DNA of 63,798 bases, filler included, from Pelomyxa schiedti (Eukaryota; Protista; Evosea), in assembly GCA_020536535.1 (NCBI GenBank). It is 10 parts of 10 records of this genome, joined end to end, with 100 filler letters (N's around TTAATTAATTAA, not from the genome) between each part and the next. Parts side by side here need not be neighbours in the genome. Positions count along the whole stretch, not along the records: positions 1 to 19,240 come from JAHLWZ010000523.1; positions 19,341 to 20,492 come from JAHLWZ010002759.1; positions 20,593 to 40,056 come from JAHLWZ010000689.1; 7 more parts are not named here. One strand, 5' to 3'. Within the stretch, counting starts at the first letter, position 1, and each line of letters begins with the position of its first letter. The position numbers were made by a program, and so were the translations under genes. The notes beneath the pieces are model-generated. The model was given only the letters and a program-made list of their open reading frames with translations. It had not been told where the DNA came from and did no database searches. Shown piece after piece: positions 1-33,181 of this stretch.

Positions 1-12
1 ATCTTGGGGAGG

Positions 13-3467: not shown

Positions 3468-3538
3468 CTTCAGCAGCTTCAGAGAAAAACTTTTTGGTTC
3501 CAACCGAAAAACAAACGGACAGTCCGGAAGGCACTCAA

Positions 3539-6020: not shown

Positions 6021-6140
6021 ATCACTTTTTCTTTGTGTTTCTAATTATCGCCCTGTCTTCCAAGTTGGTTCTTCTCCATCACTGATTTTGATCGTCTTTT
6101 TGGAAGAACGAAAAACAAAAAGAAATTCGGCAGGGGAGTA

Positions 6141-8335: not shown

Positions 8336-9169
8336 ACTACCCACAATAATTTAAAAAGTTCTGGAAATTTTTTTCTTTTTGTTTTTTATGGGGGAGAATT
8401 CTGAAGAGGCCAAGGAAGCGCGTACGCTACACGACGCTCGGCATAGCGACTTAGCTTTTCCTTCACAAGACCAAATAACTCAAACGCAACGATACTTTCT
8501 TCAACACTCAATTTCTCAACCAATATAGAAACGGAGATCTTAGAAATGCTACGCAGGGGAATGGTGCCAAAGGTGTCAAGCTTAGCTTTGGTGAATCTAT
8601 CTCACTAGCCTCCGAGAACACGCGATTACAGTGTTTTGAAAAGTCGTGAAAAAATGTGGCAACTTTAGCGGCATTTCTTTACTCATCAGAGAACCCGCGA
8701 TTTTTAATTACGCATCGGGTTGCGGGCGTAACGACGATGGTGAAGAGTGACCACCGTGGAACGGTAACAGTGACACTGGAGATCTCACAGAAAAACGTAC
8801 ACATCGGTGCACGATGCACAGCCTCGCTTTGGCCCAATGTAGGCAACAAGCCCCCGGAAAGGCACCCCAACGCCCGCATCACAGACTAGCTGCCTTCCTC
8901 TGACCAGTACAATTGTTTTAGTAATGGTTTGTTTTCCGGTATGAAAAACTGTCCCGAAGCAAAGGAATATTTGCCTGAGACAGCACCACGCTTTGCGGGT
9001 GAAAACCGTTGAAGAGTGAGGTCTTGCGACCACCGAATTGTTCAAACGGGTAATTGGTGAGTTTTTAATTTTCTGTACCAGCGATTAAATAGCGGAAAAT
9101 CCTCCCCGACATTGTGGGAGGCTCTAAGGTGACCGAAGAGAACCATCAACTTAAATTTGTTTCTCCACA

Positions 9170-11327
9170 ATGACACTGGTGCGGGATGGGATTGTGGGTC
9201 TGTTTGGCCCAACTGGTGTTGGCAAAACAGCCCTCAAGGAGACGTAAGTTGTTTGGTTGTTGGGTGCACGTTCCCACAATTTGGTGTCGGCGACGCACCG
9301 TCAGTGCAATTGGTGTCCGGCATTGACAGTAGTTAGGTTTTGCAATGGGCATTGGAGTCCCTATGAGTACCAGGGCTCTTTGGAAATCAGTGTATTACCT
9401 GCGATTTTTTTTCTTTTTCTACTCCGCTATTCTTCTTACCAAAGGCAGTTCCGAAGGAAAGTTTCTTTTGATGGAACCGATGCAAACTTGGAGATTCTGG
9501 ATTGGTGTGCATGTTCTTTTATTGTCATAGAAAATGTAACTCAAACGATCCAAGTTCCATGGGGGACTATGCTGTATTTCGAGATGCACAGTAGAATATC
9601 TTTTTTTTTTTTAAACAGACCGAAATTAACGCTCTTTGTGCCAGTCTTAGAAGAACGAATGTTATTCTACTGTGCTTTTCACTTGCTGATAGAATAAGTT
9701 TTGTCGAAGCTGTGGAAGCGGCTTTCCAGTGTATAAGAAGATGCTGCGAGGTAGTTCTAACCATATTCCGAACTCTGCCTAGCAAAAGTTTTTAGGAGAC
9801 AATTATATTTTTAGTTGGCCTCAAGATGGATCTCGTGACTGAGGCTTGAAGAATTCTTTCACTATTGAGCGCTAATTTTATTGTAGGTTCCAGGCTCTTG
9901 TGTGACTTTTCAAGAAGGTGTTTCGGCAGCAACTGAAATCAAGGCGTATGGTTACTTTCAATGCAGGTTTGCGTTCTTCCAGTCTGGCATTGCTCTCATC
10001 TCTGTTGTTGTTTTGGAAAAAAGTTCCAAAACCTATGTAGGACTGGACAATCTCTTTGAGGAAGTCTGCAGAGCTGGAATATTTTCTGCTCCTGGCTCTA
10101 TTACCATACCCGACACTAAAAAGTCCGGCTTCTTTGGTTGGTTCTCCAAGAAGCCAACGACTAAATCCCCAGAAACGTGAGAATAGTTCCTCTTTTTTTT
10201 TAGCTTATTCACCACAGTCCCCACTGCGTTGTAAAAATATCACTCGCCACAATTATTCAACCAAAGGTTTCTCTGATCCCAAATGACATCTGGCTGCGTG
10301 TGTAATGAACAAATGAACACCAACCGCTAATAAAATACAGTTGTGCTGGAATACCTGGACTTATTAACACTCATCCGGCTTTCCCGCACATGCAAGCAAT
10401 TCTACCACCTTGCAAAAACAACCTTGGCAAGTGCAATGAGCAAGCCACACAATTTTTCTGGTTGTGCCAAGGTGCCCAGCTGGAAGAATACTTCATTCAC
10501 GTGGACACCAAATAAGAGGTTCCATGAATACACCTATTCTCCCGTAAAATACACTCCAACTTCCAGTCGCCGCAGGGTATAGGTTCCATTTTAAACATAT
10601 TAACTGACACTTACACTTACAGTCCGGTTCAAACGACCAATTTGTCTGCTTTGGGCCGGACTGCACAATTTTGATGTCAAATGGAAAACACTGCCTCATG
10701 AGGAACCTTGACGTTGGTGACAGTGTTCTTGCATACTACTATGATGGAGGCCATGGCCACTATACAGCACCGGCATTTGTTAAGTGCATTTGGAAGTGTA
10801 TAACCTGTTTTCTGAAGTATATCTAACTTTTTAAAACAAACAACAGGTGCCCGGTTCGAAAAACAATTCCACTGGTTGTTATTTACCAAAAATCAACCAC
10901 CACAGACACTATTCTCGAACTCACACCCGATCACCCCATACTCCTTCTCCATCATAATCAACTGCAGGAACAACAAAACTCTTCTCACCCCAATCCAAGC
11001 AACAACATTACAACCACAATCAGGAACTGGTGCCTGCCAACCAACCTGTGCCAACCACACATGGTTCACATTGAATATGTATACAACTTGGTCCTGGAAT
11101 CACACCAAGGTGCTGTAATAATACCACTATCACATGAGAACAAAGGATTGACCCGGCACAGCGGCCCCAAGTCCAAACCTGAACCTGAATCTGTTGCATG
11201 TTGCACACTTGGCATGAGTGTACCAGGACACCCTGATGATTGGTGGGGGACACACAGGGTCATAGAGTGGTTGGACTCCAGGCCTGATTTCCCTTATGTC
11301 ACATCACTCCCTCCAGACAACCCCTGA
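9170..11327 (+). CDS. Rho/Rac-like GTPase - F-box - Hint/Vint fusion protein
   Basis: Spliced model: GPTGVGKT (G1), FRRKVSFDGTDANLEILD, TNVILLCFSLADRISF, IFLVGLKMDL (G4), YFQCSSKT. Intron 10177-10217 joins this in frame to LIPNDIWLLVLEYLDLLTLIRLSRTCKQF (F-box). Then CFGPDCTILMSNG...LDVGDSV, LELTPDHPI, YVYNLVLES, CCTLG and WWGTHRVIEWL (Hint + Vint). Confidence 0.8.
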
Positions 11328-11603
11328 CACATCACTGTTTTAATGTAAATAATTACAGTATGGCTGCAGGACAGTGAATAACAAACAACAACAATCACAA
11401 TGACAAGTTAGAAAGGTCCAACAATGCACACACGGCAGAATAACCGCAGTACACACTTCATTGATCGCAGGTGGCGCACTTTGATCATTACCGGGGGGAG
11501 GCTGAGTGTCCAATGGCCGCGTCGTCAGACTTGTGGGTTTTGGGTTGGGCATACATAGCTGACAATACTATACTATCATACTAACTTTAAGTGTGTATGT
11601 AGC

Positions 11604-12415
11604 GACTACGTTATTAGACTCCGCGCGTGATGGTGACCCAGGCGTCGGCAAAAGTGCACTATTTTTTCCCTCTTCTTCCTCCCTCTCTTTTGTGTACTGA
11701 GTGACTTATACACTATTGTGTGTGGTAGGTTGTCTGATAATGCGTTTCGTGGTATTGTGACTCTGTATACAACAATAACTCATACATTCTTCGTACATCG
11801 ATTGCGCAGTGGTATGAACCATTGTTATTAACAAGTTGCAATTGACAAGGACTACGACTTTCCATGTTGCACAAGGACCGTTGGCGTGGATTTCGTGCGT
11901 ATCGTATTCTTCTTTTCTCTTTTACTATTCTTATTTATTTTCTTGTTTTTTTCTAATCTCTAATAATTTGTTCATTGAAAATAGATTCACAATAGTTACA
12001 CGTCCATGTACATTTACTGTAATTAATACAACTGACAAAAAATAACTTACTTTTGATTGGAAGTTCTGAGAACTGAAAGCTTTGAAAATGTTACGCTTTG
12101 GCTACATGAGATAGTGAACAGTTGTACAACAGTCCCTCCGATAATACTTGTTGGCACCAAGGTGAAACCTCCCTCATTTTTTCTTTCTCATTTAAATCAC
12201 TTTCAACCTTGCACTTGTATTTGTTTCAGTTGGACATGGCCACCCATAATTTGTTCTGGTGTGTTTCACCGATTAATCACACAATCAACTAAGCACAACA
12301 CAGGGAGACATCATCCAAGGATGGAACAAATGTGGAGGGGGCCATCATGTCACTCCTCACTTCCATCGAGAGGATGAGGAGTGCACACAACCAAGTTCAC
12401 TGCTGGGCAGACTAA
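11604..12415 (+). pseudogene. Degenerate Rab1-like small GTPase
   Basis: Exon remnants GDPGVGKS, CLIMRFV, TVGVDF, SFENVTLWLHEI, IILVGTK and ETSSKDGTNVE. There is a frameshift/stop just before G1 and no recognisable WDTAGQ exon. Confidence 0.65.
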
Positions 12416-12476
12416 CTCAGTGGTTCTGACAAACAGGAACTTCTTTTTATGAACATTTTCATAACATGTTTTGAAG

Positions 12477-15250
12477 TTAGTGGCTGGTGTTTTTATTGCA
12501 CCCAGGTGTTTTGGTATCACAGTTGTTGACACTCTTGGTTGTGGGAACTGTGCCGTAATTCCTCAGTGGTGTTGATGGATTTACTATGCTATCGTTGCAG
12601 CAGTACTCCTCTGGTCCCATGGGTGTTTTGGGATCGATATGCACATCTGTCAGTTCCTGGGTGTTTACTTTGTTGGAATCTCGATCCCCGAGTGCACTGA
12701 TGCCCTCAAGCAAGCAAATGTTACTTTCACCTTGAAAGATTGCTCCGCAGGTAGTAGTAGTCGTAGTATATGTTGGTGGATGTCGAGTTATGAGATGCTG
12801 GCGTTTGTCGGCACAATAGGTGGTCAGAATTGTCACAATTTCAGTGAATGTGGGTCTGACTTTGGGATCTTGGGCCCAGCAGCGAACAAGCTATAGGATA
12901 AGGAATTAATGTAAAGTAAGATGGAGTTTGTACAAACAGACCAACGTTTCCATCTCCAGGTCTGCCTCGTGTGGAATTGATGGCCGGTACTGCTGTTTTG
13001 CTGCCTCGATAAACCATTGATGGCGTTGTTCCACAGGGATATTCTGCAGCTCTTTGCTGAATGGATGATCACCATGGTTGAGTAGCACCCAAAGCACCAT
13101 AGAAAATGAAAACACATCATATTGTTCTGGGTAACTTCAGCAACAGAATTACAAAAAAAAATTGTTTCTTACGGGTGTATTCTGCACCAGATACAATAAC
13201 CTCTGGGGCCTGTGGTGGAGTGAGCTTTACTGTATCTTCAGTGAAGAAAGTACAAGTAAAATGGTACCGAAAATACAGGAGTTGTGCCGGCAGTAGAATG
13301 ACATGAAGAAGAATGCTTCAAGTCAATTGCACTCCCAAAATCACAAATCTTACAGCAAAAATTTTTATCCACAAGAATATTTTCAGGCTACAATAATGTT
13401 AAGCATGCTGCATCTGAAAGCCGGTATTACCTTGAGATCCCTGTGGATCAAATTCTTTGAGTGAACAAAGGCCATTCCAGTGGCAACATCCAATGCCATT
13501 CTGACCCTTTCACACAATTCCAAAGAGAGTTCTTTCTTATTGCTCAATACTTTCCGCAAGCTGCCCTTCTCTGCAAAATCAAGAACAATTCCAAGTTCAT
13601 TTGTAATTTTTGTCCAACCCCATAAATTGATAATATTGCGGTGCCAAAGTTGTCCAAGACGCTGGAAGGCTGGAAGTACGAAAAGTGGGGTGAAAGGTTT
13701 GTATACCAAAATTTCGTTTTTTTCTTCCCCTCTTGGTTGTGCCTTTAAAATCTTCACAGCTACTTGGTGGTTTCTTCCTTTCTTGTCTTTGAAGGCATTA
13801 AATCGCAAGAGAGAATGAGATGGCTCCCACCAATTGTTGCAGAGTATACAGTCCCATAGCTGCCTGAACCAATTATCTTTAAGTTCTGAAGCCCACGAAC
13901 TTCCTGTAAAATAGATGAATCAACAGGCGGTGTAGTGTAGTGTTAAGGAAAACCTTGAATGCAGGATCCTTTGTAATGTCCTCCTCACAACACTGTGCAA
14001 ATGACAAACCTTTAAAAGAGAAAAAAAAGCAATTAAAGGCACAGACCTCGCATGGCTTTTGTTTGTGCAGGACAAAAACAGCAACCACAATTGCATAACA
14101 AGGCATCACCTCCTTTGCCATTGAGGAATAATTATTCGCCTTCCCCGACATGGGTGACATTGGCCATATAGCTGTGACAAGGTCATTCACTGAAATAAAC
14201 TGTAAGCCAGGGTTCTCAACTGGAGAGTCATACGTGCTCTATAGAGACATCCAATACTTATTAAGACTAAAAGTACTAAGAGAATCTTTGACTTCTTCTC
14301 AACTAGTTCCTGGTAGCATTGCCGGGTTATCTACAGGTGTTAATTTATATATACTCTAGCATGGAGGGATCACCCGATATCCAGCGAATGCCACAATGAG
14401 GAAAGAAATTGTAACTACCAGGAGAAGTGTATCTGTGAAGCAGTTGATCAACAAGGAACCGGGGATACAAAAGTACTGTCTAAGACATCCACGGGATCTG
14501 AGCACTCGCAGTAAAAATTTGAGCTGTCACTGTGGTTGTGTGCTTTCCTCTTAAGGTTTCCAGTGACAAGCGCAATGACCGTGACAAGTACATATGTGAA
14601 GATATTCACACCGAGGCTTGTATATCTCCACTTCCACGGTACTCCTCCTTTGTTCACAGCTCTATCTGAGGGAGAGTAAAACCAAATATACAAATCCAAG
14701 AAAAGGTGGGACAAACCGCTTGGATGAAACTTTACATAAATGGCCAAAAGAATGCACCAAACAGCAGAGCAACAACTGCAGGTGGCCAAGTGACTGACAA
14801 GTCCAAATTCAGAATCCCCTGCATATGACAGCTAAGTGTTGTGAGTGATTGGTAAATTCTGAGAAATTGAAAGTTTTAAGGAAAAAAACCAGTTTAACCA
14901 AAAAAAAAAAAAAAAGCCCAAAGTCACTACACAAAAAACAATAACCACTACAACAGCCATATGGCTACCAAGCGAAGCGAGCAAACGGAAGCCACAAAAA
15001 CCAACGACAGAGCAGGCAGCCCAAGTCCTCTCCGGCCAACCATCTTCCAGCCGTGGGCGAATGCAAGTCCGCAAAGCAGCAACAGCAGGCCATATGTGCC
15101 CATCAAGCAGTAGTTGTAGTACAAGTCCACGAGGTCAATCGCAGCAGAACTCTCTGTGCTGCCTCTCTGGGAGGCATTTGACAACGAAGAAGTGGAAGAA
15201 CGCGAATAATAATAACGCAGCTTCGATTTCATATAATATCCTGCTGCCAC
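12477..15250 (-). CDS. Seven-transmembrane (GPCR-like) domain fused to a TKL protein kinase
   Basis: Kinase motifs IGSGSYGTV, VAVKIL, HRDLK/PENIL, CDFG, APE, DVFSF and CWAQDPKVRPTF. Upstream exons splice to give seven hydrophobic segments, the last being KEVMPCYAIVVAVFVL. Confidence 0.8.
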
Positions 15251-15601
15251 CCCTGATTTTTTTACGATTTGGCGTTCTCTCGCGCGGCCGCATCGCCTTT
15301 AAAAACACCACCACTTTTACAATAACGACACCGAAAAGTGGCAACCAACAGTGCAAAACCGCGAACTCACTTGCTCAACTTGGAGGTGCCACGACGCGCA
15401 CAGGCACAAGGCACCCTCAGGGTCTCAGAGAGAAAAGGCCCCAGGCTTGAACCAAGTTGGAGCAGTCCTTGTTCTGCTAACAGCACTTCGGGATTGATGC
15501 ACGATCAAAGGGAATTTGTGATGATGGTCATGATCACGCTGAATCTTTGAGAATGAAGCGGCTGGAGTACCACTCCAGAATTCGGTTGCCTGCTGATCAT
15601 C

Positions 15602-15953
15602 ATGACAGGTCTTGGTGGCAAGTTCTGGGAAGTCACAATTCCTGAAAACGCACTGTACTCACCTGAAGAGCGTGGCCACAATCCACTTGACAATGACTGT
15701 GATGCACGGGGACCGCGGTGCACGAAGAACTGTGTCGGAATTCACTGGAAATGTCTGGTGTGTTTTTGTTGCCAAGCTTCGACTGGTGAACTTATTCACA
15801 AGTTCAACTAGATTTGTCAATTCTATGACATGTGCAAGGCCTGTGAACAGTACCGAGTTCTCTACTGTAAATACTTCACCCACCATACAGTGATCATTTT
15901 TTAACCTAGTTACCCACAGGGGGCACAACTTGACACACCCTGAAACTATATGA
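15602..15953 (+). CDS. Small ZZ-type zinc-finger protein (5' end uncertain)
   Basis: Splicing gives CDARGPRCTKNCVGIHWKCL/ICQFYDMCKACE...HRGHNLTH, which fits the ZZ finger Cys/His pattern. Confidence 0.45.
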
Positions 15954-16072
15954 TTGCAAGTATGCACACACTTGACATATCACCCAGGTTTACCTCAGAC
16001 AATGGTGTCTCTGATGCTGACAACGATTTTAACTTATCATAATTGAGGATAACCACGAAACGACGTTGCATC

Positions 16073-17291
16073 ATGGCCCTTGTAAGGGACTTGTGAGTTT
16101 TTAGTTAGTTAGCAACTGGTTTGTTGACTGACAATGTGTACCGAAGTGATTGCGTGATTAACGTGCGTCTGCTCGGCGATTACGGCGTGGGAAAAAGTGC
16201 ATTTTTCTTTTTTGATATCACAAAGAAAACTTACTTTGTTTGTAGGTTGCTTGCTCCTCCGTTTTGTGGTGTGTGTATGCATCTTTGTGCACAAACAAAC
16301 TGCAGACTATTTTGCGTTTTCAGGAGGACCAATTCCTATCAACCCACATAGCCACCATTGGCGTGGATTTTGTGCGTATTTTATGCGTTGTGCATTCCAT
16401 TTACCACGAGTCCGTTCTCCCACCCTCTCACCAATCATGTTTTTCAAACACAGCAAGTCAGGACAGTCCTGGTGGAATCGAAGATAATTCGAATACACAT
16501 AGTAAGTCCTTTTTTCCTCCCTATCTCCAGGAATACACTCACCTGATGAGATGAAAGTGGGATCTTCTGAATACAGAAAGGTTATTTTGTTGTTGTTATT
16601 CCATAACAACTCAACATGAAATTAGAACTAGAAACTGTACAGTGCAGATATACTGAAATAATTATCCCAATTAACCCTTTGCATTGGAAGTTTACCAGAG
16701 ATGTGACGGACTCATTGTATTGTAGTGTGTACCCCACCCTGTGAAGTACCCAAACCCACCATCAGTATCAGTGATATCACTGATATTAGCAGCTTCCACG
16801 GCGTTTCCAGTTGGTTGGGCGAAGTAGGGCGCTATTTTACAACAACCCCTCAGATAATTCTTGTTGGAACCAAGGTTGGAACTTCCTTCATTTTGTTCAT
16901 TTAATATGAATATCCGAATCTTTCTCTTGCATTTACATCAATCTCCCTGACCAATACCGCTTTCAAAAAATCAAAATTTTACTTATCCCACTCACATTAC
17001 TTCAGCTGGCTTGGCCACCACAAACCGGCAAGTCGAATTCAGCGACGCCAAACAGTTTGCTGACGAAAAAGGGCTCCAGTTGTGGTGCTTTCCTGTAAAA
17101 ATTACTGATAATCACTCCAACTAACAACACAACACAGGGAGACATCATCCAAGGATGGAACAAATGTGGAGGAGGCCATCATGTCACTCATCACTTCCAT
17201 CAAGAGGACCAAGGACTCTGATGAGGAACCAACCAGCACAACAACCCAACAAAGTTTGCTAGTGAAACTCTCTCATTGGTGTGGGTTGTAG
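16073..17291 (+). pseudogene. Divergent Rab1-like GTPase with an apparent 1-nt frameshift
   Basis: Exons give MALVRDFDCVINVRLLGDYGVGKS, CLLLRFV, ATIGVDF, WDLLNTER, IILVGTK and ETSSKDGTNVEEA. The exon near 17006 reads CTGGCTTGG where CTG GAC TTG is expected. Confidence 0.65.
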
Positions 17292-17329
17292 TTGTAGTTC
17301 CAAGAACAGTAATCAGACTGATTCACAAA

Positions 17330-18050
17330 TTAATCCCTGTTTTTGTTTTTGCTGGGTGTTGTGTTGATGGAACCGTAGTCCAACATCTTTACAGGCACAG
17401 TTGTTTGCCTAACTGATACAGATGGGTCTGTCACAGTTGGGCTTGAGAAACTACAACAGTCTTCATCATCCTCTGCTTTTGGTGCTGGATAAACAGCATC
17501 ATCCCCAAGTTCACAAAGTCCAACAAAAACCAGGTTCCTCTCTGGTTTTTGTGCTTCACAGAGAGTGGTGACAGAGATTCTGACCCTAATGCGCTTTGAA
17601 AGTACCGAACTTACAGTATCCAATACTTTCTGCAAGCTGCCTTTTGCAGCAAGATCAAGAACAATCCCCATCCCATGCTTTGGGGATTCAGTCCACTAAG
17701 AGGGGACCCACACTACAAGGGGAAGTGTATCTGTGAAGTATTGTCTGAGACGGACCCAAGATTGTAAAAGTACCATCTAAAACATCCACCTAAAAATGCT
17801 GCCAGGTGACTCACCACTCCGAACACAGAGTCCCCAAATCCAGAGTTATAAATAGGGGCATAGGACACCTACAGGAAATAAATGATTCACCAGGCAAACA
17901 AAAAAGCACATCAAACAAACAAACAAACAAACAAACAAACAAACAAACAAACAAACAAACAAACAAACAAACAAACAAACAAACAAACAAACAAACAAAC
18001 AAGCAAGCACTCATACCAAGCGAAGAACACAAGGGAAGCCACAAAAAACA
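17330..18050 (-). pseudogene. Internally deleted paralog of the 7TM-TKL kinase
   Basis: GIVLDLAAKGSLQKVL matches GIVLDFAEKGSLRKVL at about 13560. Nucleotide blocks at 17715-17740 and 18010-18050 match 14420-14445 and 14960-15005. Confidence 0.65.
17912..18002. repeat. (AAAC)n microsatellite
   Basis: About 22 tandem AAAC units seen directly. Confidence 0.98.
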
Positions 18051-18115
18051 ACGCGGTCATTTAGTGTTTTTTTCCACCAAGTTGGGGATCGGACCTTTTC
18101 CTCGAAAAAAACATA

Positions 18116-18469
18116 ATGATGGTCACATCGTCACTTGGTGGTATCGGTGTCCCATACTCAATCGGGGAGATGAAAAACCTCAAAAAGATACGTAGTCGTA
18201 CTGGGCAAGCTGTTGTTGTCACACCACCACCACAAGGAACAACAAACGGAACTGAAACGACCGCAACAGCAACAGCAACCGCAACGAGAGTTACAGCAAT
18301 GACAGGGCAATGGACAATGAGGGACCAGGTGATGGGGCTGGTTGCGGGAACACACCCTCGCTGCGGTGCGAACGGGCCGCTGTTGCTGATGCTGCGGAGG
18401 AATTCCTGGTTCGACGGTACGCTTGTGGTGAGGCTCCTGTGGGGGTGGCTTATGGATCACTCGAGGTTC
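18116..18469 (+). CDS. Orphan family A, N-terminal fragment cut by a gap
   Basis: Motif MRDQVMGLVAGTHPRCGANGP...LLWGWLM. Confidence 0.6.
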
Positions 18470-18569
18470 NNNNNNNNNNNNNNNNNNNNNNNNNNNNNNN
18501 NNNNNNNNNNNNNNNNNNNNNNNNNNNNNNNNNNNNNNNNNNNNNNNNNNNNNNNNNNNNNNNNNNNNN

Positions 18570-19240
18570 CCCACCTCAGCCCTGAACCAGCTCCAAAGAA
18601 ACCTGTGCTACTTGGTCTGGTTCTTGGAATGCGAAGTGGATTCCTTTTGCACAAGGGACATGCTGCTCCAATGGAAAAGTTCTTCATTAACGGTTATACT
18701 TGTACAAATTAATCCTTTTCTAACCTCTACAACAGGAGGTGGTGATGTGCGGGGATTTGATATTCTTAATCCCATAACTACAACGGCCCCTGTTATGCCC
18801 ATTCCCACCGCGCCGCATCTCCCGCAGGATACAGCCGGCGGTTCTACTGCTGCTCCCGGCCTTCTCTCACTTGGCGGGGATGCTTTTGGCTCACTGGTTG
18901 CTGCCCTCCGCTTACACATTCCCCACCTTGAGCCGCTATGCACCCATGTGTTCTTCAACACTGGGAACCTCATTAACCTCCACCACCCAACTCCTTTGCA
19001 TCATCCCCTTCACCCCACATCCTCCTCAGCTTCTTCTTCTTCCTCACCCTTGTCATCCATGCCAACAACAGCACTCTCAACAATCACAAGTTCACCTCAT
19101 CATGCTGCTACCGGACTCAACAACAGGAATAGTGTGGCCTCAGCAGTGAAGGACCTGGTGCACAACACATGCAGCAGTGTTGGGATTGGGCTGCTGTGGC
19201 CCATGTCTGAAGGTGCCCTTGAGCTCAACCTGTGCAAAAC
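18570..19240 (+). repeat. SAM50: Near-identical second copy of the Sam50 3' half (allele or recent paralog)
   Basis: Matches 7579-8258 with SNPs, 3-nt-multiple indels in coding sequence and a 2-nt deletion confined to the intron. Confidence 0.9.
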
Positions 19241-19340
19241 NNNNNNNNNNNNNNNNNNNNNNNNNNNNNNNNNNNNNNNNNNNNTTAATTAATTAANNNN
19301 NNNNNNNNNNNNNNNNNNNNNNNNNNNNNNNNNNNNNNNN

Positions 19341-19439
19341 GTTAGGAAGGACATCAGAACTGCTGTGTCATTCTACAAGTGGGCCGCAAACATGAATTAT
19401 GCTGATGCCGTTAACACACTTGCTGTTTTACTCGGGTAG
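19341..19439 (+). CDS. C-terminal Sel1-repeat fragment at a contig start
   Basis: VRKDIRTAVSFYKWAANMNYADAVNTLAVLLG*. Confidence 0.55.
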   Translation, partial: VRKDIRTAVSFYKWAANMNYADAVNTLAVLLG

Positions 19440-20592
19440 TGATGTACACCTAGTTTTTTTTGTGTAAAGATCCAACAAAATGCACCTCTCCAACAACGTG
19501 GACCATCAGAACTCTCTTTGTTGCACTGACCAAGTCCCACACCAGCCTCCCAATCAGATATCCATCCCTCTTCAGTGTCTCACTTGTTGTTGTGGCTGTG
19601 GTTGTTATTTTCGTTGTGGCTATTTCCTTTGTTGCTGCTTTGTTCTTTCTCCTTTTTTGGATATTAATAGTTGTTGGTGTTGTTTGTTTTCGTTTCCAAT
19701 TGTATCATCGGCTGCGGCGGGGCGCGACGCGAGGCCAGATCGGCACCGATGCGATGACGCCAAGTTGTTCCAGTGCGCGCCGGGCCGGGGTAGAAACGAA
19801 CGCCGAAATGCGCTTGTGGCGAGGCTTCGATGCCATTCTCAGAATCTGTTAGGACAGCAGTCATCACGAGAATGCCGAGTAGGCGATGAGCACTGTGGAG
19901 GTACAGCACACAAGTTGGGGTGTGCGTGGTGCTGGTCAGGCACGTGGTGGGTCATAATCAACAAGCCTCCAACATTTTCGCTCTTCAAAAAATGACGACG
20001 ACACAACACCCGCGGTGCAGGATGATGATGACTGCAATTTCCTTTTTGGGGAGGGGAAAAGTCGGAGATGCAATTCTCGAGGTGTCAAAGGCGTTCGAGC
20101 ACTTTGAAAGTTGTTGTTTGTCCCACCTTCACTCTATTTAAATATCTAGTCTATGCAGTCTATGTTTTCTGTTTGTCCGAAGTGATACAACTAATTATTT
20201 TTTAGTTTGTGCCAGCTCAAACAAAAAAGAACCAACAGTTGACGATGATAATGTGGAGATGTGTTACCTGCCTGGTTTAATGTTTCTGTACAGCTTGACT
20301 ATTCTCACTAACGACCATGCTGCACTGCACACGCACATTCCCGCGAGTCTGTCAAATTCATTTTCGCGAATCCTCTCTTATTCCCCGTTGGAAATGAGAG
20401 ACTACTGCCAGAGTGTCTCAGAAAACATCAGCATGGCGAGGTATTCAGAAGAGTGGAGTGACATTGTTTCAAGAGAGGAATGCACTCGAAGTNNNNNNNN
20501 NNNNNNNNNNNNNNNNNNNNNNNNNNNNNNNNNNNNTTAATTAATTAANNNNNNNNNNNNNNNNNNNNNNNNNNNNNNNNNNNNNNNNNNNN

Positions 20593-21377
20593 AACAGGGT
20601 GTGGTAGTGCACTACAACTGGTACTAGTACAACAGGTTGTTGTTGCTGAAGTAGTACTACTACTGGAGTTTGTATTAGTATTTGGACTTGAATTTGAGGC
20701 ACTGGGAGTACCCCGTGTAGTGCAATTGCTTGATGACGCCGTGTTTGTTGGTGGCGTTTCGGCGGGTGGTTTTGCGATTATGGGTGTGGCCGGTTGACTT
20801 GGTTCCCCGGACATTGGAAAGGCTTTTTTTCTCGTCGTTCGCGTTTGTGTTGTTGATGGGTTAGGAGAAGCCTCATCAGTATCATCTTGGCGCAACCAGA
20901 ACGTTCAGTTCTGTTATCCCTTGACTGACGGACTGAGAGTGACACATCACTTTCCTTCTTGAGCATTGACCAGTCCATTCCGGAATAGAGTCGAAAATTT
21001 TTTGTGCAACGCAATTTGCCCGCAAAATTGGAGGAACTTTCTTACAAGTCCGTCCCTTCGCGTCTTTTTAAACGGCAAGAAAATACAAATACAAATCACA
21101 AAACAAAAAAAAAAACAAAGCAAACCCAAGAACAACTCAAGAGTCAAACACAATGGTAACCAACACACACTCAACAACAAATTGGCGTTTGCCACACGTT
21201 TTTGATTGTTTTTTTTTTTATTTTAATGTGCAACACCACAGTAAAAGTATGGCGTATTAACGTACAACGTATAGGGCAAGTGGGCAGCACTCGCAGCACA
21301 GAACCACGGAATCCACCTCATCTCCGTCTCTCACGGCCACAACCTCCGCATCGACCCAGCACACCCAACTGAGGTCA
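20593..21377. repeat. Divergent duplicate of 23857-24637 (5' ends of the RNA ligase and beta-trefoil genes)
   Basis: Collinear sequence with SNPs and small indels, ending at a 100-N gap. Confidence 0.9.
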
Positions 21378-21713
21378 NNNNNNNNNNNNNNNNNNNNNNN
21401 NNNNNNNNNNNNNNNNNNNNNNNNNNNNNNNNNNNNNNNNNNNNNNNNNNNNNNNNNNNNNNNNNNNNNNNNNNNNNGGAGTTTAAAGACCACACAATAG
21501 AGAAACCAGTAACAGAGGTGTCACCGACAGAGAATACAAGTGCCCCCGGGTCTCATCAGTGCGGCCTTCAACTCAAGGTACTTGAGTTTTTAGAGCTGTG
21601 ACGTGCCCTTTCTCCTGCGAAAAACCCGTTTATACTTGATTATGGGAAAATGATTCGAAAACCATGAAGTTTTTGTTTTTTTTTTTTTTTTGTGTTGATT
21701 TTGTTGTTATTGG

Positions 21714-24081
21714 TCAGTCTTGTGCGTTTTGCATGAGCCAGATGACAAACCGGCACTGGTCAGAATCCATGTAAGCAAAGTGCATGAGGGATGGATCGCA
21801 GTGGAGTGCGGATCCAAGCCAGTTCATTCCATCGTCATAGGACCACCCCTTCTTGGATATGTACTTGCGTAGAAGGTCGTGTGCCATCAGCCGGAGCCTC
21901 TTTGTTTGCTTCGCGGCTGGTACTCCAAGTGGTTCCCCTTGTTTGAATACTTTCTGGCTGCCGGGAATTTTCCGGAGTGTATCCACTTGATAGGCTTCCA
22001 TTGTGAGGTCACAGTTGCTGTCAGTGCACATCCAGAGGTAGGTTCCTGGTTGGTACACCTTTTTTCCGGGAAGGAATCAGAGTGATGTAGGGGCAACAAT
22101 TGAGAGTACCTTCACATCTCCGGTTCTAAATCCACAATGACAATCTTTCGCAACTGCAAGAGGAACTCGCATTTTCACACAGGTCATAGGTTTGCCACAG
22201 TAGCAGTGCAGGGGCTCACCCGGAGATCTGTCTGCCGGCAAATGAATTGGTGCCAAAGCTGAAAGTTCCGGAACTGTGTCAGCCTGGCAATATCGGGCAT
22301 AAGTTTAACTGTGTATTTATGGTTTGTTACCTGAATCGGGCAAAATATTGTTCCGGGAACAGTGGGGTGACCTGCTCTACGGAGTTTGTCCTGTTCTACC
22401 AGCCGCTTTTCAATAGCACCGGCTGTGGCATTCTTTTTTGGAGGTCTATCACTCGCAAGTACAGCGTTATATAAGTTCTCCCAATAGGTGACTCTTTCTC
22501 TCAGTTTGTCACGTTCGTGAGGAGGAACTGGCAAACAGGGATGACTTTCTGCAAAAACCAACTCCTTCACAAGGGGAAGGGTTTTGTTCGCAATCACTCC
22601 GGCCATGAAGTGCGCATCCACTGACGACCACCCTTTGTACTTCAGGCGGTGCATGAGGAACCACTGGGAGCTCTTCAGTTTGAGCCGGCAGTTGTTGATG
22701 TCGAGCAGAACGACACCCTCGAATCCTATGTATTTGTCACATTGTTCCTGAACGAATGCTTTGGCTTCTGCCATAGTCGTGCATAGTCTTCTCTCTGGGC
22801 GTCTCATGCCGCCAGCAAGGGCCATGGAATCCAATAGATCTTGTTCAGCAACAGCGTGGGTTGGTCTGTGCCACGCTCCAAGAAGAAATACAATCGGTTC
22901 AGTGTAAGGCCTTATCACCTAATGAATTGGGTTTGAGTTATTGTTAAAAAGTGGAAGAAGGATTTTACCTGATTGAAGGGAGAGCACATTTCGAGGCTGT
23001 ATACCCACTGTGGGTCGAGATTTTCAGCGGGTGGCTTGATAAAGTCAAAGACAAGGTCCTGAAAGGTTTTGGGTGATGAGGGGTGAACCGCTTCCCGGCA
23101 AAACGTGTGGCGGTTGGTTACAAGCCACTTTCCTTGGAATTCGAAAAGAAGCAAGAAGGTCCCGTCTTCCTATTGTTATAAAGTAAGAGCACATCGCATC
23201 GGAACTCTCTCGTTACCTTCACTTGCGCTTCAAATGGTTTGCTGAAACAGAACCGTTCCTTAGTTTTACTCTCAATTTCGTAGAACCTGTCAAAGCCCTT
23301 AGACACCACTTTCACAAACCTCAGGCCTTCTCCACCTCTTATTCCAGCACTTCCTCCTCCCTGGTCTCCCATCACAGCCCTTGCGTCGCATACAGCATCA
23401 CAAATAGCACCATCTGACAACTCTCCATCGTCATCAGCTTGCTCGCCAGTATTCCCATCTGTCTGTAAAGAAGAATCAAAATGATAAAGGACATTTTCAT
23501 AAAAATACAAATTCTTCCGGCTCGTATTATAATTCCAGAGGGGAAATATAAATAGAATTTATATATTTATATTCTAATCCAAAAAAAAGGAGGAATTCGG
23601 ACAAACAAACCACAGCGGGTTTCTTCTCAGTCTGAACCACCAATCCTCTGCATTCATTGACAACAGGGTGATTGAATGGGCTCCTCAGCTGGTGATAATT
23701 AAGCACAGCGAGGGGCACGCTGGTGTCAGGGTGTGACAGGCAGTGCAAGTGGAATTTCTTGACCAGCAACTCCAAGTCGTTGCCATTCTCCTGCAGCCAA
23801 GTCTCAACATTCAACACCCCAATAGACCCACTGTCACCACTACTTGAAACACCAAAAACAGGGTGTGGTAGTGCACTACAACTGGTACTAGTACAACAGG
23901 TTGTTGTTGCTGAAGTAGTACTACTACTGGAGTTTGTATTAGTATTTGGACTTGAATTTGAGGCACTGGGAGTACCCTGTGTAGTGCAATTGCTTGTTGA
24001 TGCCGCCGTGTTTGTTGGTGGCGTTTCGGCGGGTGGTTTTGCGATTATGGGTGTGGCCGGTTGACTTGGTTCCCCGGACAT
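21714..24081 (-). CDS. T4 Rnl1-like ATP-dependent RNA ligase with a C-terminal DUF3268-like zinc finger
   Basis: VNECRGLVV, VSKGFDRFY, motif I K/EDGT (Lys codon just before intron 23170-23216), SLEMCSPFNQ, motif IV FEGVVLLD and motif V RLKLKS. C-terminus HCYCGKPM...LWMC...CD...PLG...AHD...WL...HF...DQCRFVI. Confidence 0.85.
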
Positions 24082-24485
24082 TGGAAAGGCTTTTTTTATC
24101 GTCGTTCGGTTTGTGATGGGTTAGGAGAAGCCTCATCAGGATCATCTTGGCGCAACCAGATCGTTCAGTTCTGTTATCCCTTGACTGATGGACTGAGAGT
24201 GACACATCACTTTCCTTCTTGAGCATTGACCAGTCCATTCCGGAATAGAGTCGAAAATTTTTTGTGTAACGCAATTTGCCCGCAAATTTGGAGGAACTTT
24301 CTTACAAGTCCGTCCCTTCGCGTCTTTTTAAACGGCAAGAAAATACAAACACAAATCACAAAACAAAAAAAAAACAAAGCAAACCCAAGAACAACTCAAG
24401 AGTCAAACACAATGGTAACCAACACACACTCAACAACAAATTGGCGTTTGCCACACGTTTTTGATTGTTTTTTTTTTTTATTTTA

Positions 24486-25145
24486 ATGTGCAACACCACA
24501 GTAAAAGTATGGCGTTTTAACGTACAACGTATAGGGCAAGTGGGCAGCACTCGCAGCACAGAACCACGGAATCCACCTCATCTCCGTCTCTCACGGCCAC
24601 AACCTCCGCATCGACCCAGCACACCCAACTGAGGTCAACGCCGACGGCGCCGAGGGCATCTACGCCACATGGATGGTCGAGAAGGTATATCCCCACTCAT
24701 CTACATGTACATTCAACCTAATGTAAATTGACAACTCAAAATCAACGAATGAAAACAAACGCATTAAACAAATACACTAAAACAAAGTCAAATCCAATCC
24801 AATACAATCCAATCAAATCAAATCAAATAAAATAAGTACTCTTCACAGACTAATTTTGTATAACAGGTCGGAAAGAAGACCAAGGAGTTCCGCTTCAGGA
24901 ACAAGTCATCTGGCAAGTACCTCCGCATTGACCCCGCAAACCACAAGCCAGACTGTGAGGGAGTCGGCGGACCCCTCTGCACATTCAAGCTCCACTGGAT
25001 CAACAAGGAGCACTTCATCTGCTGCCTCGAGAGCGTTCAGTTCCACGGAATGCACTTGGGAGTCTTCCCCGATGGAAGGATGAAGCCAGCCAACCTCACC
25101 GCTGAGGGACCCCATGGCCAATGGAGGATCAAGCTCCACGTTTGA
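24486..25145 (+). CDS. Small beta-trefoil protein (fascin/hisactophilin-like), 3 exons
   Basis: Exons 24486-24500, 24535-24684 and 24867-25145. Three internal repeats: HGHNLRID...ATWMVE, SGKYLRID...CTFKLH, HGMHLGVF...GQWRIK. Confidence 0.7.
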
Positions 25146-25398
25146 GCTCTTTAACTTGTTCTTTCGAATTACTTGATTTTTTTGAAGTAAAAAAAAAAAG
25201 TGAACTTGATGGAAACTACCAGTTTTTCTTTCTGTGTTTGTTTGCTTTGGAATAGAGCCTTGCTTGGTGTTACTACCTATGGTTTCAGTAAAAAAATCAG
25301 AAAGTGAAGCAAAGGTTTTTTCTTTTTTTTATTTGCTCTTACATTCTTGGTGTTATGCTTGGGTTTAATATTTCTTTTTGGGGTAAGTGGAGCTTTGT

Positions 25399-28042
25399 TT
25401 AGTTATATGTGTTAAGGCCTCGGCAGAGCCGGCTTCTGAACCAATTGCTGTATGGTTGGTTCCAGTACCCACGGCCGAACCTGCAAAGGTTAGTTTCCGG
25501 CAGAAAATGAAGTGAAGTGGTACAATATGTCATGTTTTGGCCAGCCGGAAGTCATGCGGTCTCCACAATCCTTGCCTAGGGTTGCTAGAACAAGACCGTT
25601 GATTATAACAGAGTGATCGGTAACCTACAAAATTGTTAGTTCCACTGCACAGAACTCAATTGCATACATTCGGGCCTCCTTCCAGTTCAAAGTTGTACCA
25701 GCCCTCAACATAATGGGTTTCAACCGGCTTGATTTCAAATGGGTGAGTCCATTCACCAGACGCAAATACTGGGTGGCCGGTTGTCAAACCTATCCTTGGA
25801 ATAAGAAAACAATTGTATGGTTGGCTGGAACTTACCCAAACCATTCAAGAAAATAACTTTAGTTTCAGCCATAACTGGATCATAGGAAATACGAGTTATC
25901 CTCCTGGAAGAGCCGGTCTCAGTTGTGATCTCATCTCCAACTGTGATGTCCGCAACTTTTCTTTTTTTTTTTTTTTTAAAGAGGAAATTAGGTTAAATTT
26001 AGGAGACAAGTACAAAGGAGTGTACTTAGTGGAACCATCAGCCATTTGCACAATCCCATCCCCCAGGAAGCAGCTTGGCTGTCCAGGTTCCTCGACCTTC
26101 AGAGAGGTTATTGGAGTGCCAGAAGAAAAGCATAAATCACCTGAGTGATGAGAGAAGCATCTGGTTCTCCCCACCTGCGGATAATTTCGGCCTTGGCTCT
26201 GTCTCGCTCTTCGTCAGAGTTCAAGTAAGGGCCTCTATCGTAACCTCTTGACGGACCAAGTCCGTAGCCAATTCTATGTAAAGATAGCTTTCTGTCTACA
26301 TTGTACCTCTCTAGAAATTGATGAGGGGGTGAGGGCAGAAACAGGTACATACTATTTACTTTGGGGTCAGCAATCAGTAGCTGTTCTCTCCATGATGGCA
26401 AGGAAAGCTTTCGAATAGGGGGGTCACAGAAATATTGGCATAATAGTTTGGCTGCCTCCTCGGGGAGGGTACAATTATTGTAGTCCGGAATTGGAGTTTG
26501 AAAACGCCGGGAAACCAAGGACATTGTACATAGGGAGTGTACTGCCTCGTCAGCAAAAATCTTGCTACAGTGAGAAAGTAGCATTACATGGAAAAGAATA
26601 CAATGTCGCCATGACACTCACAGCGGCAGTGCCGCAGAAGGTGGGTCAGTATGAACAGCAGTAATTCATTTGGCAGCGTTGTTAGCCTATCTCTGGGAGG
26701 ATATTATTATTCTATTACAGGCTGGAATTCATGTGATACTTGGGAGTAGGATCTGATTTCACGAAGAACATTCTGGTATCTGCGGCGTATCCATAGTGGC
26801 AACTGGGTACTGAGGGCCGGCAGAATGAAAGGTCTCCCAACAGTCTGCACAAGGATGTTAGCTATGGAGGTGTATTCGAGTCTCTTACTTGACACGTTTT
26901 TCTATCCCAGTTTTCCTGTATTTCTGACGCAATCTAATGACATCGACGTAAGACACCCATACATCTCCAGAGCCAGGTGGCAAACGAACTAATGAATTGA
27001 CGTCAGATTTCTTATTTCCTTCCTCGCACAGGTTTTTAGCGGTGATGAAAAGATTGCACTCTTTTGTGCTGAATGGGATAAATGCCCCAGGTCCTAGGTA
27101 TTGATATTAACAGCTACGGTCAATCAACTTTTCCATACCAGCTGGATCTATCCAAAACCACGCGGGAGGAGGAGAAGCCAAATAACGTCGGATCATGTTG
27201 AGGAAATTGATGTTCGCCTTGGCATCCCACAGAGTTCCATACGAAACATCCTCTACTTGTATTACAATCCTGTGCGCCATTCGCATAAGCAAGTGAATTT
27301 GGGTGTTGGGTGCAGGGACAGTAAGGGTCGCCGGTTCACTCACCGCTTTGGGAATCAGTTAAAACGGCAGGAAGAGAACAAATAAAAGCATACGTTGCTC
27401 AGCAGTGGTTTCTTGAGCCACAGAAGAGGAGCCAGAAGGTATTCTCTTGTTCAAAGCAGCAGTAGTGAAGACAAAAACACCGCCCAAATAATCGCACAAT
27501 ACGAGTTTATCCAAGGGAACCCCTTCCTCACAATACAACCACTCAGCTGCCTGCTGGACTGCACGCACTCCAACATCGTCAATTCCATGTGGGCTCGCTA
27601 TATACAAACGCTGTTACTGAATAGTGATAATATATCTAAAATAAACACAGCCATAGGCGAAATATTCCGAGTTCACAATGACTTAATTTAATTGTGTAGT
27701 TTTGTTATTTAAATTAAACACATTCTAAATGTATAAAATAAAAATATATATAAACATAAATATTCTCCAAAAACTAAAATAATGGCACTCGTTACCTGCA
27801 GGTTCGCCGGTTCCGCCATCAACGGCAGAAGGAGGAGGAGGAACAAGGTAGAGCTTCGCGGGGGCGGTGGGCGCGGGGCAGGACAGGGACGCGGGGATGG
27901 GGGGCTTGAGGGCGTCGCTGGGCGCGAGCAGGTGCAGGGTGACGAGGTGGCCCGGAGGCGGCGGGTGGAACTCCGCCTGGTGCGACGCCCGCAGCTCCCC
28001 TGGCTGCCGTGTCCCGTATCGGTGACGCCAGAACGCGTACAT
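25399..28042 (-). CDS. WWE - F-box - Hint/Vint fusion protein, multi-exon
   Basis: Phase-consistent GT-AG splicing gives AWFWIDPAG..FIPFSTKEC...YVDVIRLRQKYRKTGIEKRV (WWE), LTTLPNELLLFILTHLLRHCRLHSLCTMSLVSRRF (F-box), SCFLGDGIVQMADGSTKKVADITVGDEI, LTTGHPV, GWYNFEL and HSVIINGLVLATLG (Hint/Vint). The start and the last exon are less certain. Confidence 0.8.
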
Positions 28043-28368
28043 TGCTATGTGCTGTGTATGTGTGTTGGTTAATTAATGGTTGCTTACTTTTTTCGCTTTC
28101 AAACAAGTAACAAAAAAACCGAACGTTTGGTGAGTTCAGGGAACAGATTTGGAATGTTGTCCTCTGGTATTCAGAACGGCCCCTTCGACTTCTCATCAGA
28201 AGTACTGCACCTCATGCCTCATTCCGAATCCTCTTTTCTGAACCCGCAGGAAAGGTCTTGCCTGATCAACAACGTATCAAACGAAATCTTTTTAGTTGCG
28301 GAGGTGGTGAGAGCCTGCGAAACTTGCTTTTTCCCACAAGTGACACACAGCGGGGGTGGTACCCATAA

Positions 28369-30173
28369 ATGTACACAGGTGACGACGAGCGGCCGTTCAG
28401 GGCACCACCTAGGCCTGATGCCGCGCCCCCGACTACGTCGCCGTCCTCACCACAAACGGGAACAGGCACTCACGAGAAAAGATGGTCCATGGGGGGATAC
28501 CGCAGCAGGGGCCCACAACAACAACAACTACAACAGCAACCACCATCTGACACTTGTACTGTTGGTTGTAGTGTTAGGATCTTTCTTTTTTTTCTTTTTT
28601 TCCTTTTTTTTCTTTTTTTTCCTTTTTTTAAATCAAAATGAGTTAAGGCATTGAAACCAGTTGTCGTTTTATTTTTAAGATTAAATGTCAAGCTAACGTT
28701 AAAACAGAATCAGAAGAGCTGAGGCTACTCAAGCAAGAACTGGAGGCAATGAAGAAAAAGGCACTTGAAGGGGAGAGGGCGTCACTTGAAACTCGTCGGA
28801 AGATGCTTATCGCCGCCGGGAAGAACTTCAAGCGCAAATTCTGCCGGTTCCGCAGCGGGGAGATGGCGCTCGTGGACCTCTACCGTCTGAACCTCGAAAC
28901 AGCAATATACCTTGGAGGCGGATCCAATGGGTATGTCAGCAGCGTCGCAGTCCTACCGCAAGTAACCAATGTGGTGACAATTACGCCGCAGCCGGTGGAG
29001 ACTGGGAGGAGGGTGGCTCTCAAGATGATGATCAATTATTCCGCTGGGATGCATACCAAGCAACAAAGGGCCTTTTATGACAGGGAAGCGCAGGTAGGGC
29101 TCATCTATCCGCACTGGTGTTTCTGCAACGTCTTCAGTACGTTCAGAGCTGAAACGAAGCTGTGCCTCATCCAAGCTAAGAAAAATTTCGTTCTCATCAA
29201 TGAGAACCTACAGTGCGTCGATCCTTCGAACTGCTGCAACAGTGAAACGGGAATTCCTGTTTTCAACAGAACGACATACATTACCATGGAGCTTGGGAAA
29301 TACACCTTGGAGTCTGCAGTTGCACTGACGTTCCACAGGTGTGGTACCACCAAACCTGACACAGGAGTACTCCCGCTGAGCTGTGACAAACTCGTCGAGC
29401 TTTCCTTTTGCCTACTGTGTGCCTGCAACCACCTGAACTCCAGAGGCTGGTTCCATTGTGATATCAAACTTGACAACGTTCTGGCAATGGAACGGTCTGG
29501 TGTGACTGGTCAGTTTTGGGCGCTCTGCGATTTCGGAACCTCACTATTCTCCCCCAATGGGGAGTTCCAGTTTGCTCACAACGAAAGCTTTGAAGGAAAT
29601 TCAATGAACCGAGCCCCGGAGTGCTACACTCCAGAGCAGCTGCCTTCAGGAGCCCACAAATACATCCTGAAAAAGAATGACGTTTGGGCCATCGGCTGCG
29701 TTCTCTATGAGGCCGTCTGTGGGCAACATCCGTACTACAGGGTAAATCAAATTGACTATACCTTGCTGGTACCCAGAACATTAGGGCCTTTCACCGTCCC
29801 ATCACCACAGAGAGAGTCCAATCCGGAAGTATCAGCACTCGCCTCATACCTCCTTGAACGAGACCACACCAAAAGACCTTACGCAAAGCAAGCAATGCTA
29901 GTGAGCGGGGCACTCATGTTTATCCCGCGGGAGTCACTCTTACAGTTCGCCGTATATCAAAACAAACCGGCCTTGCACTCTCAGATATGGGCTATACACG
30001 AATCCAACGTTTCGGCAATGGAGGCGTGTGTAGCGACCAACACACCGCCAACTGTCCGGCAGCTGTCATCGCTTGTTTTCACCAACGAGGCTCTCAAGGA
30101 CCTTGAACTCTTCACTTCTTGCTTGCTTCATTTCCTGGAAATATTCCACAGTGCCCTCCGAACTCGCCACTGA
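28369..30173 (+). CDS. Divergent Ser/Thr protein kinase with a short coiled coil
   Basis: LGGGSNGYV, VALKMM, HCDIKLDNV, CDFG, RAPE and DVWAIG in ORF 28749-30173. A probable upstream exon starts at 28369. Confidence 0.85.
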
Positions 30174-30434
30174 AGAGAACCAACGTAACACAACATATTA
30201 TACGAGATTCCCAATTCGCAACTAACCATACATACAAATACAGAATGACTTTTAAATGACCGGCTTTGCAACTTCACACCGGGATCGGATCCTTTCACAC
30301 TGCCGGATGCATATTGCATGGCCCGGAATAATCACGCGCCGGTGTTAGTCACTGGAACTAAATCCCCCCGCCGGCACCATGATCTCACACAACCTCACCA
30401 TCAAGTCGGAACACCAACAAAAACAAAAATTTTC

Positions 30435-30507
30435 TGGAGGTGGAGGGTTTCGATCCCCCTGCCTCTCGTATGCAAAACGAGCGCTCTACCAATTGAGCTA
30501 CACCCCC
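30435..30507 (-). tRNA. trnA-UGC: tRNA-Ala(UGC)
   Basis: 73-nt cloverleaf: acceptor GGGGGTG/CACCTCC with G3:U70, D-arm TAGCTCAATTGGTAGAGC, anticodon loop TTTGCAT, T-loop ATCGAAA. Confidence 0.96.
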
Positions 30508-30553
30508 GGCCATTTCTGAAGAACAAAAAAATCACCCGCCCGCAGCATCTGAG

Positions 30554-33004: not shown

Positions 33005-33181
33005 GACCTGTGTTGCGGGTTAAATCAAAACTTTCCTGGTGATGATTGCGTGACGAGGTGGTCTGGGGTGCTGCAGAGTAAGGTAGTAACTACAATGGTG
33101 ATTAGTAACCTGAATACACCACCATTTGGCCTCAAGCCTGTTGACTCCACTATCTTTGAAGCAAAAACTTGATTAAGAACT

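Follow-up and report, generated by a model that had tools for sequence, protein, structure and literature searches.

Vint genes were defined by Burglin in 2008 as encoding proteins of the VWA-Vwaint-Vint type, four of them with a U-box, and these U-box-Vint proteins had already connected Vint with ubiquitin ligases (PMC2362128). Two further systems offer themselves for comparison, namely the Hedgehog autoprocessing domain (1AT0), in which residue C143 forms a branched intermediate (PMC12054796), and BIL2 of the Tetrahymena BUBL1 locus (6TMM), a Hint fold with a connection to ubiquitin biology (PMC8616854). Here we describe two genes from Pelomyxa schiedti, an anaerobic amoeba, in which an F-box precedes a C-terminal Vint domain: gene 1 (Pelo_6648, protein P0008; 9170..11327, plus strand) and gene 2 (Pelo_8755, protein P0010; 25399..28042, minus strand). 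Both lie in the window, that is, the whole stretch of 63,798 nucleotides analysed, in which ten scaffolds are joined by spacers of N44, 12 bases and N44. An earlier note on this DNA had reported both as F-box and Vint genes, and this observation is confirmed. The F-box of gene 1 stands clearly (PF00646, 33.8 bits, cut-off 20.5), and the interrupted F-box of gene 2 falls below the cut-offs and is a likely one only.

Compared to the described Vint proteins (PF14623, 8R2C), the two products share a C-terminal Vint-type Hint domain with Cys1, a TxxH motif, the sequence TLG, a C-terminal extension and no terminal His-Asn, as well as a ubiquitin-ligase module, which is found in some of the described members. 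They differ in their heads, which are VWA and Vwaint in the Vint proteins sensu Burglin and Rho-like (gene 1), WWE (gene 2) or, in relatives, Kelch, WD40 or ankyrin domains here, and in the ligase module, an N-terminal U-box there and an F-box adaptor close before the Vint domain here. Pfam gave no match to VWA or Vwaint in P0008 or P0010 at E up to 10.

Gene 1 encodes 525 amino acids in 12 exons and consists of a Rho-like G domain, an F-box and a Vint domain (in Pfam, P0008 matches Ras at 2e-17, F-box at 2.7e-8, Vint at 2.2e-5 and Hint at 5.5e-5). Ten GT-AG introns and one GC-AG intron leave a single open frame, and the product equals GenBank Pelo_6648 minus a 19-residue retained intron, a stretch that the paralogues lack as well. 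The GC-AG intron (9844-9886) is implied by the annotation; a GT donor 9 bases upstream is likewise in frame. The Rho/Rac-like G domain (9170..10084) comprises an intact P-loop (9206-9229), a degenerate, intron-split G3 box (9500-9564), a G4-like motif (9817-9831) and a G5-like motif (9962-10030). By the G-box definitions that we assume for Rho proteins (DxxG-Q for G3, and CAAX), the G3 sequence DCSMG is not an intact DxxG-Q, and there is no CAAX, the C-terminus being the Vint domain. The structural model has a mean predicted local distance difference test score (pLDDT) of 61, and its top Foldseek matches are Rac1/RhoA (E ~1e-13); the VIA structural search with this model likewise matches them (Z 21), and its list is filled by GTPases, so that it assesses neither the F-box nor the Vint domain. 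A basic-aromatic motif after the G domain (10118..10153), similar in the paralogues, is a possible membrane anchor. It is followed by the canonical F-box (10270..10417), which is split by an intron (10298-10340), and by the Vint domain (10647..11327; Pfam and alignment), which contains two long polar inserts and the motifs Cys1 (10647-10649), TPDH (10923-10934) and CTLG (11202-11213). The Vint score of 24.8 bits lies below the PF14623 cut-off of 27, and relatives score higher (28.7 bits in P0009, an RNA-derived paralogue, and 33.4 bits in P0001). As in RhoBTB and Dictyostelium RacA, an atypical Rho domain without CAAX is fused to a cullin-adaptor domain; those proteins use BTB and cullin 3, whereas gene 1 has an F-box (cullin 1 type) and a Vint tail (PMC8305917).

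Splicing of gene 1, which the earlier note had left to RNA data, is borne out at three joints (10297/10341, the one within the F-box, 10576/10623 and 10795/10847) in RNA contigs from three runs of one sample in one study. A 920-nt contig carries F-box and Vint exons together, extending from within the F-box to the stop of a gene 1-type transcript, but it encodes Pelo_18504, 97% identical to gene 1, rather than gene 1 itself. Over the first 172 residues P0009, the product of this contig, does not differ from Pelo_18504, and it is therefore a close paralogue or allele of gene 1. Among the contigs at gene 1, none connects the Rho-like domain with the F-box.

Gene 2 encodes 645 amino acids and is composed of a low-confidence N-terminus, a WWE domain, an interrupted F-box, a helical linker and the Vint domain. 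Its 13 exons, with 12 GT-AG introns, give P0010 exactly in a single open frame, the splicing being based on annotation and homologues. Mean pLDDT is 66, with ~90 over the Vint domain and <50 for residues 1-190; a ubiquitin-like reading of the second exon was dropped (no Pfam match, pLDDT <50). Pfam detects Vint in P0010 at 1.1e-17 (64.8 bits) and an F-box-like match, and no WWE; the WWE family is matched by the homologue P0164 at 3.8e-10. Residues 210-293 (26829..27169) resemble the WWE domains of TRIP12 (Z 9.0; root-mean-square deviation (rmsd) 2.4, 70 aligned), HUWE1 (Z 8.8) and DTX1 (Z 8.7) in the VIA fold comparison, and as modelled this region is a WWE fold. Gene 2 shares the WWE fold of ADP-ribose-binding ligases (RNF146, Deltex, HUWE1, TRIP12) but pairs it with a likely F-box rather than with RING or HECT. 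Searches of the ESM Atlas with P0010 and P0019 192-443 gave no usable match.

The interrupted F-box (residues 325-376, 26492..26688) differs from those of canonical F-box proteins in a C-x-C-x(0-2)-H insert (26611-26628), a possible metal site that is kept in 12 of the 17 subfamily proteins checked, two of which are isoforms of one gene. An alternative splice excising the insert was rejected, given this conservation and the broken frame that would result. Profile and fold evidence of a weaker kind speaks for an F-box: a profile of five gene 2-type sequences scores 23.5 against the canonical F-boxes of the family (best of 59 column shuffles, 18.3), the related Trimastix protein P0040 passes the F-box cut-off (26.2 bits), and residues 322-421 resemble in fold Fbs2, FBXO3 and FBXO31, F-box proteins in complex with Skp1, at a middling Z of 5.2, 5.2 and 5.0, values around 5 being within the range of common helical arrangements. 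On the other side stand the Pfam result (E=0.025; PF12937, 14.8 bits against a cut-off of 24.3) and a single-sequence F-box profile of the subfamily that reached 1.3 bits, below the best shuffle at 6.7. We regard the region as a likely F-box.

A helical linker (residues 377-487, 26073..26491), conserved in the gene 2 subfamily by alignment and model, leads to the Vint domain (25402..26072) with Cys1 at 26070-26072, TTGH at 25773-25784, Thr600 at 25580-25582 and a helical C-terminal extension at 25402-25576. In both genes Cys1 and the TxxH motif occur where the earlier note had placed them. The model of this domain matches the Tetrahymena Vint structure 8R2C best (Z 15.9, rmsd 2.9, 138 aligned), followed by BIL2 (Z 11.4), then inteins and Hedgehog (Z 10.8), and the Vint domain is strongly predicted to fold as a Hint domain.

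Searches with the Vint exon of gene 1 retrieved seven proteins from 120 candidates, all from P. schiedti, six with Ras and F-box matches and one with ankyrins. With the Vint domain of gene 2, 13 proteins were obtained from 349 candidates, their heads being of the WWE, ankyrin, WD40, Ras-Kelch and Fic-Ras-Kelch types; the last is seen in P0015 (P. schiedti), where a Fic domain stands ahead of Ras-Kelch-F-box-Vint, although two gene models may have been merged there. Among 1.84 billion representatives, a profile search yielded 9396 matches at E <=0.001. Among the 150 matches listed, 136 were new, and the Pfam scan covered 92 of these, the 44 omitted being mostly multi-intein proteins and short fragments. 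Thirteen of the 92 pass the F-box cut-off and six carry Vwaint, shares that are no unbiased census since F-box-Vint proteins made up the query. Altogether, at least 27 proteins pass the Pfam F-box cut-off and end in a Vint domain, which is truncated in P0003 and P0007; 15 of them are assigned to P. schiedti and one to Trimastix marina. The transcriptomes of Mastigella eilhardi and Pelomyxa sp. JSP add further members to the gene 2 subfamily. The modular family of F-box and Vint proteins that the earlier note had suggested is supported, and the two genes are only two among its members, the differing heads extending from Rho-like and WWE to Kelch, WD40 and ankyrin.

The order in members with a head is head, F-box, Vint. 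F-box and Vint lie on a common transcript in the transcriptome proteins P0011, P0016, P0040 and P0164, and transcriptome proteins of three other taxa keep the same order of F-box, then Vint. From the start of the F-box to Cys1 the distance is 80-98 residues in 19 of the 21 Rho/Kelch members measured (two were not parsed) and 140-161 residues in four members of the interrupted type. Canonical F-box proteins (FBXW, Kelch-F-box, FBXO) likewise combine an F-box with a substrate-binding domain; there the F-box usually comes first and the binding domain after, whereas here the order is reversed.

Several further relatives were noted. A Vint subfamily of eight (P0013, P0028, P0030-P0032, P0035, P0037 and P0047) has a conserved helical head and mostly Lys before Cys1; in the members scanned, no Pfam F-box was matched. 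P0125, which is of the gene 2 type and matches a glycogen-binding domain, ends just before the place of Cys1 and is not counted as support, and P0117, considered as a natural tail-less relative, is merely an isoform of the full-length P0164. Insensitive pattern scans of viral contigs gave no relative for P0158 or alignment A7 and one weak partial Vint match for alignment A2; in an equally insensitive pattern scan of prokaryote genomes, none of 27 pattern matches was confirmed.

The catalytic residues were counted in 43 Vint domains labelled as F-box-linked by Pfam or alignment (two of them fragments), within 109 aligned Vint domains. Cys1 is present in 42 of the 43, the exception being a gene model without that stretch, and both the Thr/Ser and the His of block B in all 43; over the whole alignment, Cys1 is found in 108/109 and the block B His in 109/109. 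The position before Cys1 is variable, with V, G, S, A, E, T, P and further residues, and a ubiquitin-mimicking Gly-Gly at this place was ruled out, being absent from the aligned Vint domains. By the ends of the structural alignments, the last residue of several inteins, which we take to be Asn, and Hedgehog residue 400 fall on Thr600 of gene 2, within Ala-Thr-Leu-Gly. The next position is Leu in 40 of the 41 F-box-linked Vint domains with a residue there. The absence of a terminal His-Asn reported in the earlier note is thereby upheld, and protein splicing is excluded because neither His-Asn nor a downstream extein is present. Thr, Ser or Cys occupies the place of the intein Asn in 103 of the 107 Vint domains with a residue there, and this conserved residue, the Thr of TLG, may therefore be a second nucleophile. 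Hedgehog residue 400 is C143, counting from the start of 1AT0 at 258.

With Hedgehog, these Vint domains share the Hint fold, Cys1, block B, a predicted N-terminal cleavage and a conserved residue at the place of C143, which is Thr here and Cys in Hedgehog; they differ in having no fixed Gly at -1 and no motifs J-L (PMC12054796, PMC2362128). Furthermore, Hedgehog is a secreted ligand, whereas the heads here are of cytosolic type. The Hedgehog match of the gene 2 model ends at residue 601, 1AT0 being a fragment, so that the comparison stops short of the sterol region. Inteins differ in their terminal His-Asn followed by a Cys, Ser or Thr of the C-extein, none of which the F-box-linked Vint domains have. 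BIL2 provides a precedent for ATP-free transfer of an upstream domain to lysine, but it is flanked by ubiquitin-like domains and has a terminal Asn, whereas here an F-box protein lies upstream and nothing follows (PMC8616854).

The two Vint domains are of separate descent, as the earlier note had suggested. In a tree of 40 of the 109 rows, picked to span the groups, gene 1 lies on the side of the VWA-Vint proteins and gene 2 across a branch with 100/99 support. Forcing the two pelobiont groups together was rejected by the approximately unbiased (AU) test (p=9e-6, LG+G4), with groups that were picked after a tree was seen. The sister of the gene 2 Vint domain is that of Mastigella P0164 (99/87), whose layout is likewise WWE, F-box, linker, Vint; the ankyrin protein P0002, in which no F-box is detected, nests within the clade of gene 1. 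F-box pairing is thus present on two Vint lineages as aligned, a pattern compatible with two fusions or with one old fusion and later swaps, between which the sequences do not separate.

The literature searched, from which subscription papers including that on 8R2C were out of reach, contained no description of F-box-Vint proteins; PMC3417536 and PMC3113570 name both domains, but separately. Many database records already carry both Pfam matches. F-box-Vint proteins form a large protist family that is apparently undescribed.

We postulate that these proteins are Skp1-cullin-F-box (SCF) adaptors that cut themselves before Cys1 and release the head with the F-box, a reading toward which we lean slightly. 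The Vint domain, in its predicted Hint fold, would use Cys1, aided by the Thr and His of block B, to convert the preceding peptide bond to a thioester, by analogy with Hedgehog and intein chemistry. Water or another small nucleophile would then open the thioester, possibly via the Thr at the place of the second Hedgehog Cys, and the freed piece, 316 residues in gene 1 and 487 in gene 2, would bind Skp1 while the head recruits targets. The calculated masses of head piece and tail are 35.4 and 23.5 kDa for gene 1 and 54.2 and 17.6 kDa for gene 2. The cut would then act as a one-way maturation switch, the weakest step of the scheme. Judged from sequence, binding of Skp1 is highly probable for the F-box of gene 1 and rather likely for that of gene 2; cleavage at Cys1 is quite probable; and control of ligase function by the cleavage is conceivable, if somewhat doubtful. 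In its favour stand the fold match to 8R2C, the conservation of Cys1 and the block B His, the Thr, Ser or Cys at the place of the intein Asn, the number of proteins with both domains, the spacing from F-box to Cys1, the common transcripts, the pairing on two Vint lineages, the resemblance of the gene 2 region to Skp1-bound F-box proteins and the precedent of U-box-Vint proteins. Several points weigh against this scheme. Cleavage and Skp1 binding are predictions from sequence or model for every member, and the family search started from F-box-Vint proteins and intact Vint domains and therefore inflates both the F-box share and the catalytic conservation. Many Vint domains of the same clades have no detectable F-box (79 of the 92 listed matches scanned lie below any F-box cut-off), so that the tail also serves non-ligase heads. 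The model of gene 1 has a pLDDT of ~40-55 across the F-box, and constraint between gene 1 and its paralogue is modest, the ratio of nonsynonymous to synonymous differences (pN/pS) being 0.46, with 16 of 26 tested differences altering the amino acid. The choice of AU groups belongs on the same side.

The Vint tail could be a promiscuous module shuffled among genes, frequent behind F-boxes since F-box genes expand in pelobionts, with any cut unrelated to SCF and some F-boxes, those of the gene 2 type, decoys or degenerate. The near-identical Vint domains behind the ankyrin head of P0002 and other heads speak for such shuffling, as do the weak F-box of gene 2 and the modest constraint on gene 1. 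We consider it improbable, though worth keeping in mind, given the narrow spacing from F-box to Cys1, the layout shared by gene 2 and its Mastigella sister, and the recurrence of the pairing in Trimastix and in proteins of another clade. Adjacent F-box and Vint genes might also have been merged in the gene models, which contain many short introns. P0007, with a Vint domain cut short and then DUF4403, resembles such a mis-fusion, and the splicing of gene 2 rests on annotation and homologues; this explanation is nevertheless largely refuted by the RNA contig joining F-box and Vint exons, by the same order in transcriptome proteins of three other taxa and by the single open frames, and appears very improbable.

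Two other outcomes of the thioester were weighed. A lysine of the protein bound by the WWE, Kelch or Rho-like head, or another nucleophile, could attack it, so that the F-box piece is fixed to the target and the target, left carrying the F-box, is drawn to SCF without ATP; the proteins would then be suicide adaptors. BIL2, second-best in the fold comparison, is reported to form isopeptide bonds, conjugating ubl4 to ubl5 and a Ras GTPase (PMC8616854), the order of head, F-box and Vint puts the reactive C-terminus on the target-binding piece, and the Thr stands where Hedgehog forms its branched intermediate. Yet many different residues stand before Cys1, in contrast to a donor of the fixed Gly type, and BIL2 retains a terminal Asn143 (mutated in the crystal) that the F-box-linked Vint domains lack; we regard such tagging as unlikely. 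Lipidation as in Hedgehog is as unlikely or marginally more so. Here the C-terminal extension would bind a sterol or lipid that becomes attached to the new C-terminus, a membrane anchor in place of CAAX. The Hedgehog fold match, the helical extension after the Hint core of the gene 2 model, which aligns with that of 8R2C, and the lack of CAAX in the Rho-like members favour it; the absence of Hedgehog motifs J, K and L from Vint domains (PMC2362128) and the strong difference of the extension between gene 1 and gene 2 do not, and the basic-aromatic motif could already anchor the Rho-like members.

As for the layout of the window, gene 1 lies on the scaffold at 1-19240 and gene 2 on that at 20593-40056, which rules out a genomic clustering of the two; the 14-kb distance between them is a meaningless artefact because the window joins separate scaffolds. 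There are nine artificial spacers, the first at 19241..19340, the second at 20493..20592 and the last reaching 62356, and neighbourhood across them carries no information. The scaffold of gene 1 contains two near-identical stretches of open reading frames (ORFs; 7262-8335 and 18432-19240), a local duplication or assembly repeat, and, upstream of the gene (8800-9060), a repeated element with raised contig depth and many loose ends. Two genes (42169-42942 and 62479-62829) are related to P0002, the protein with ankyrin head and Vint domain, over its N-terminal region. By eye, ORFs resemble an RNA ligase/nucleotidyltransferase (22184-24120, minus strand), the start of which is repeated at 20593-20904, a DNA transposase (53031-54697, minus strand), and the gag (zinc knuckle) and aspartic protease of a long terminal repeat retrotransposon (57975-60808, minus strand); an ORF with Sel1-like repeats and several ORFs similar to protein kinases were seen likewise (31925-33019, minus strand; 28647-31725; 12477-13919).

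That Vint follows dozens of F-box adaptors whose heads can be read, such as Rho-like, Kelch and WWE, makes simple tests possible. Should the covalent version apply, suicide adaptors would amount to an ATP-free covalent degradation tag that evolved more than once in anaerobic protists, the WWE head, for example, picking an ADP-ribosylated protein as its target, and would hold interest as a tool as well. If true, the maturation or tagging of an SCF adaptor by the Hint domain that it carries would represent a new mode of SCF regulation. Beside the U-box-Vint proteins, a second class of ligase is joined with Vint in two lineages or more, which suggests self-cleavage as a recurring form of ligase control in protists.

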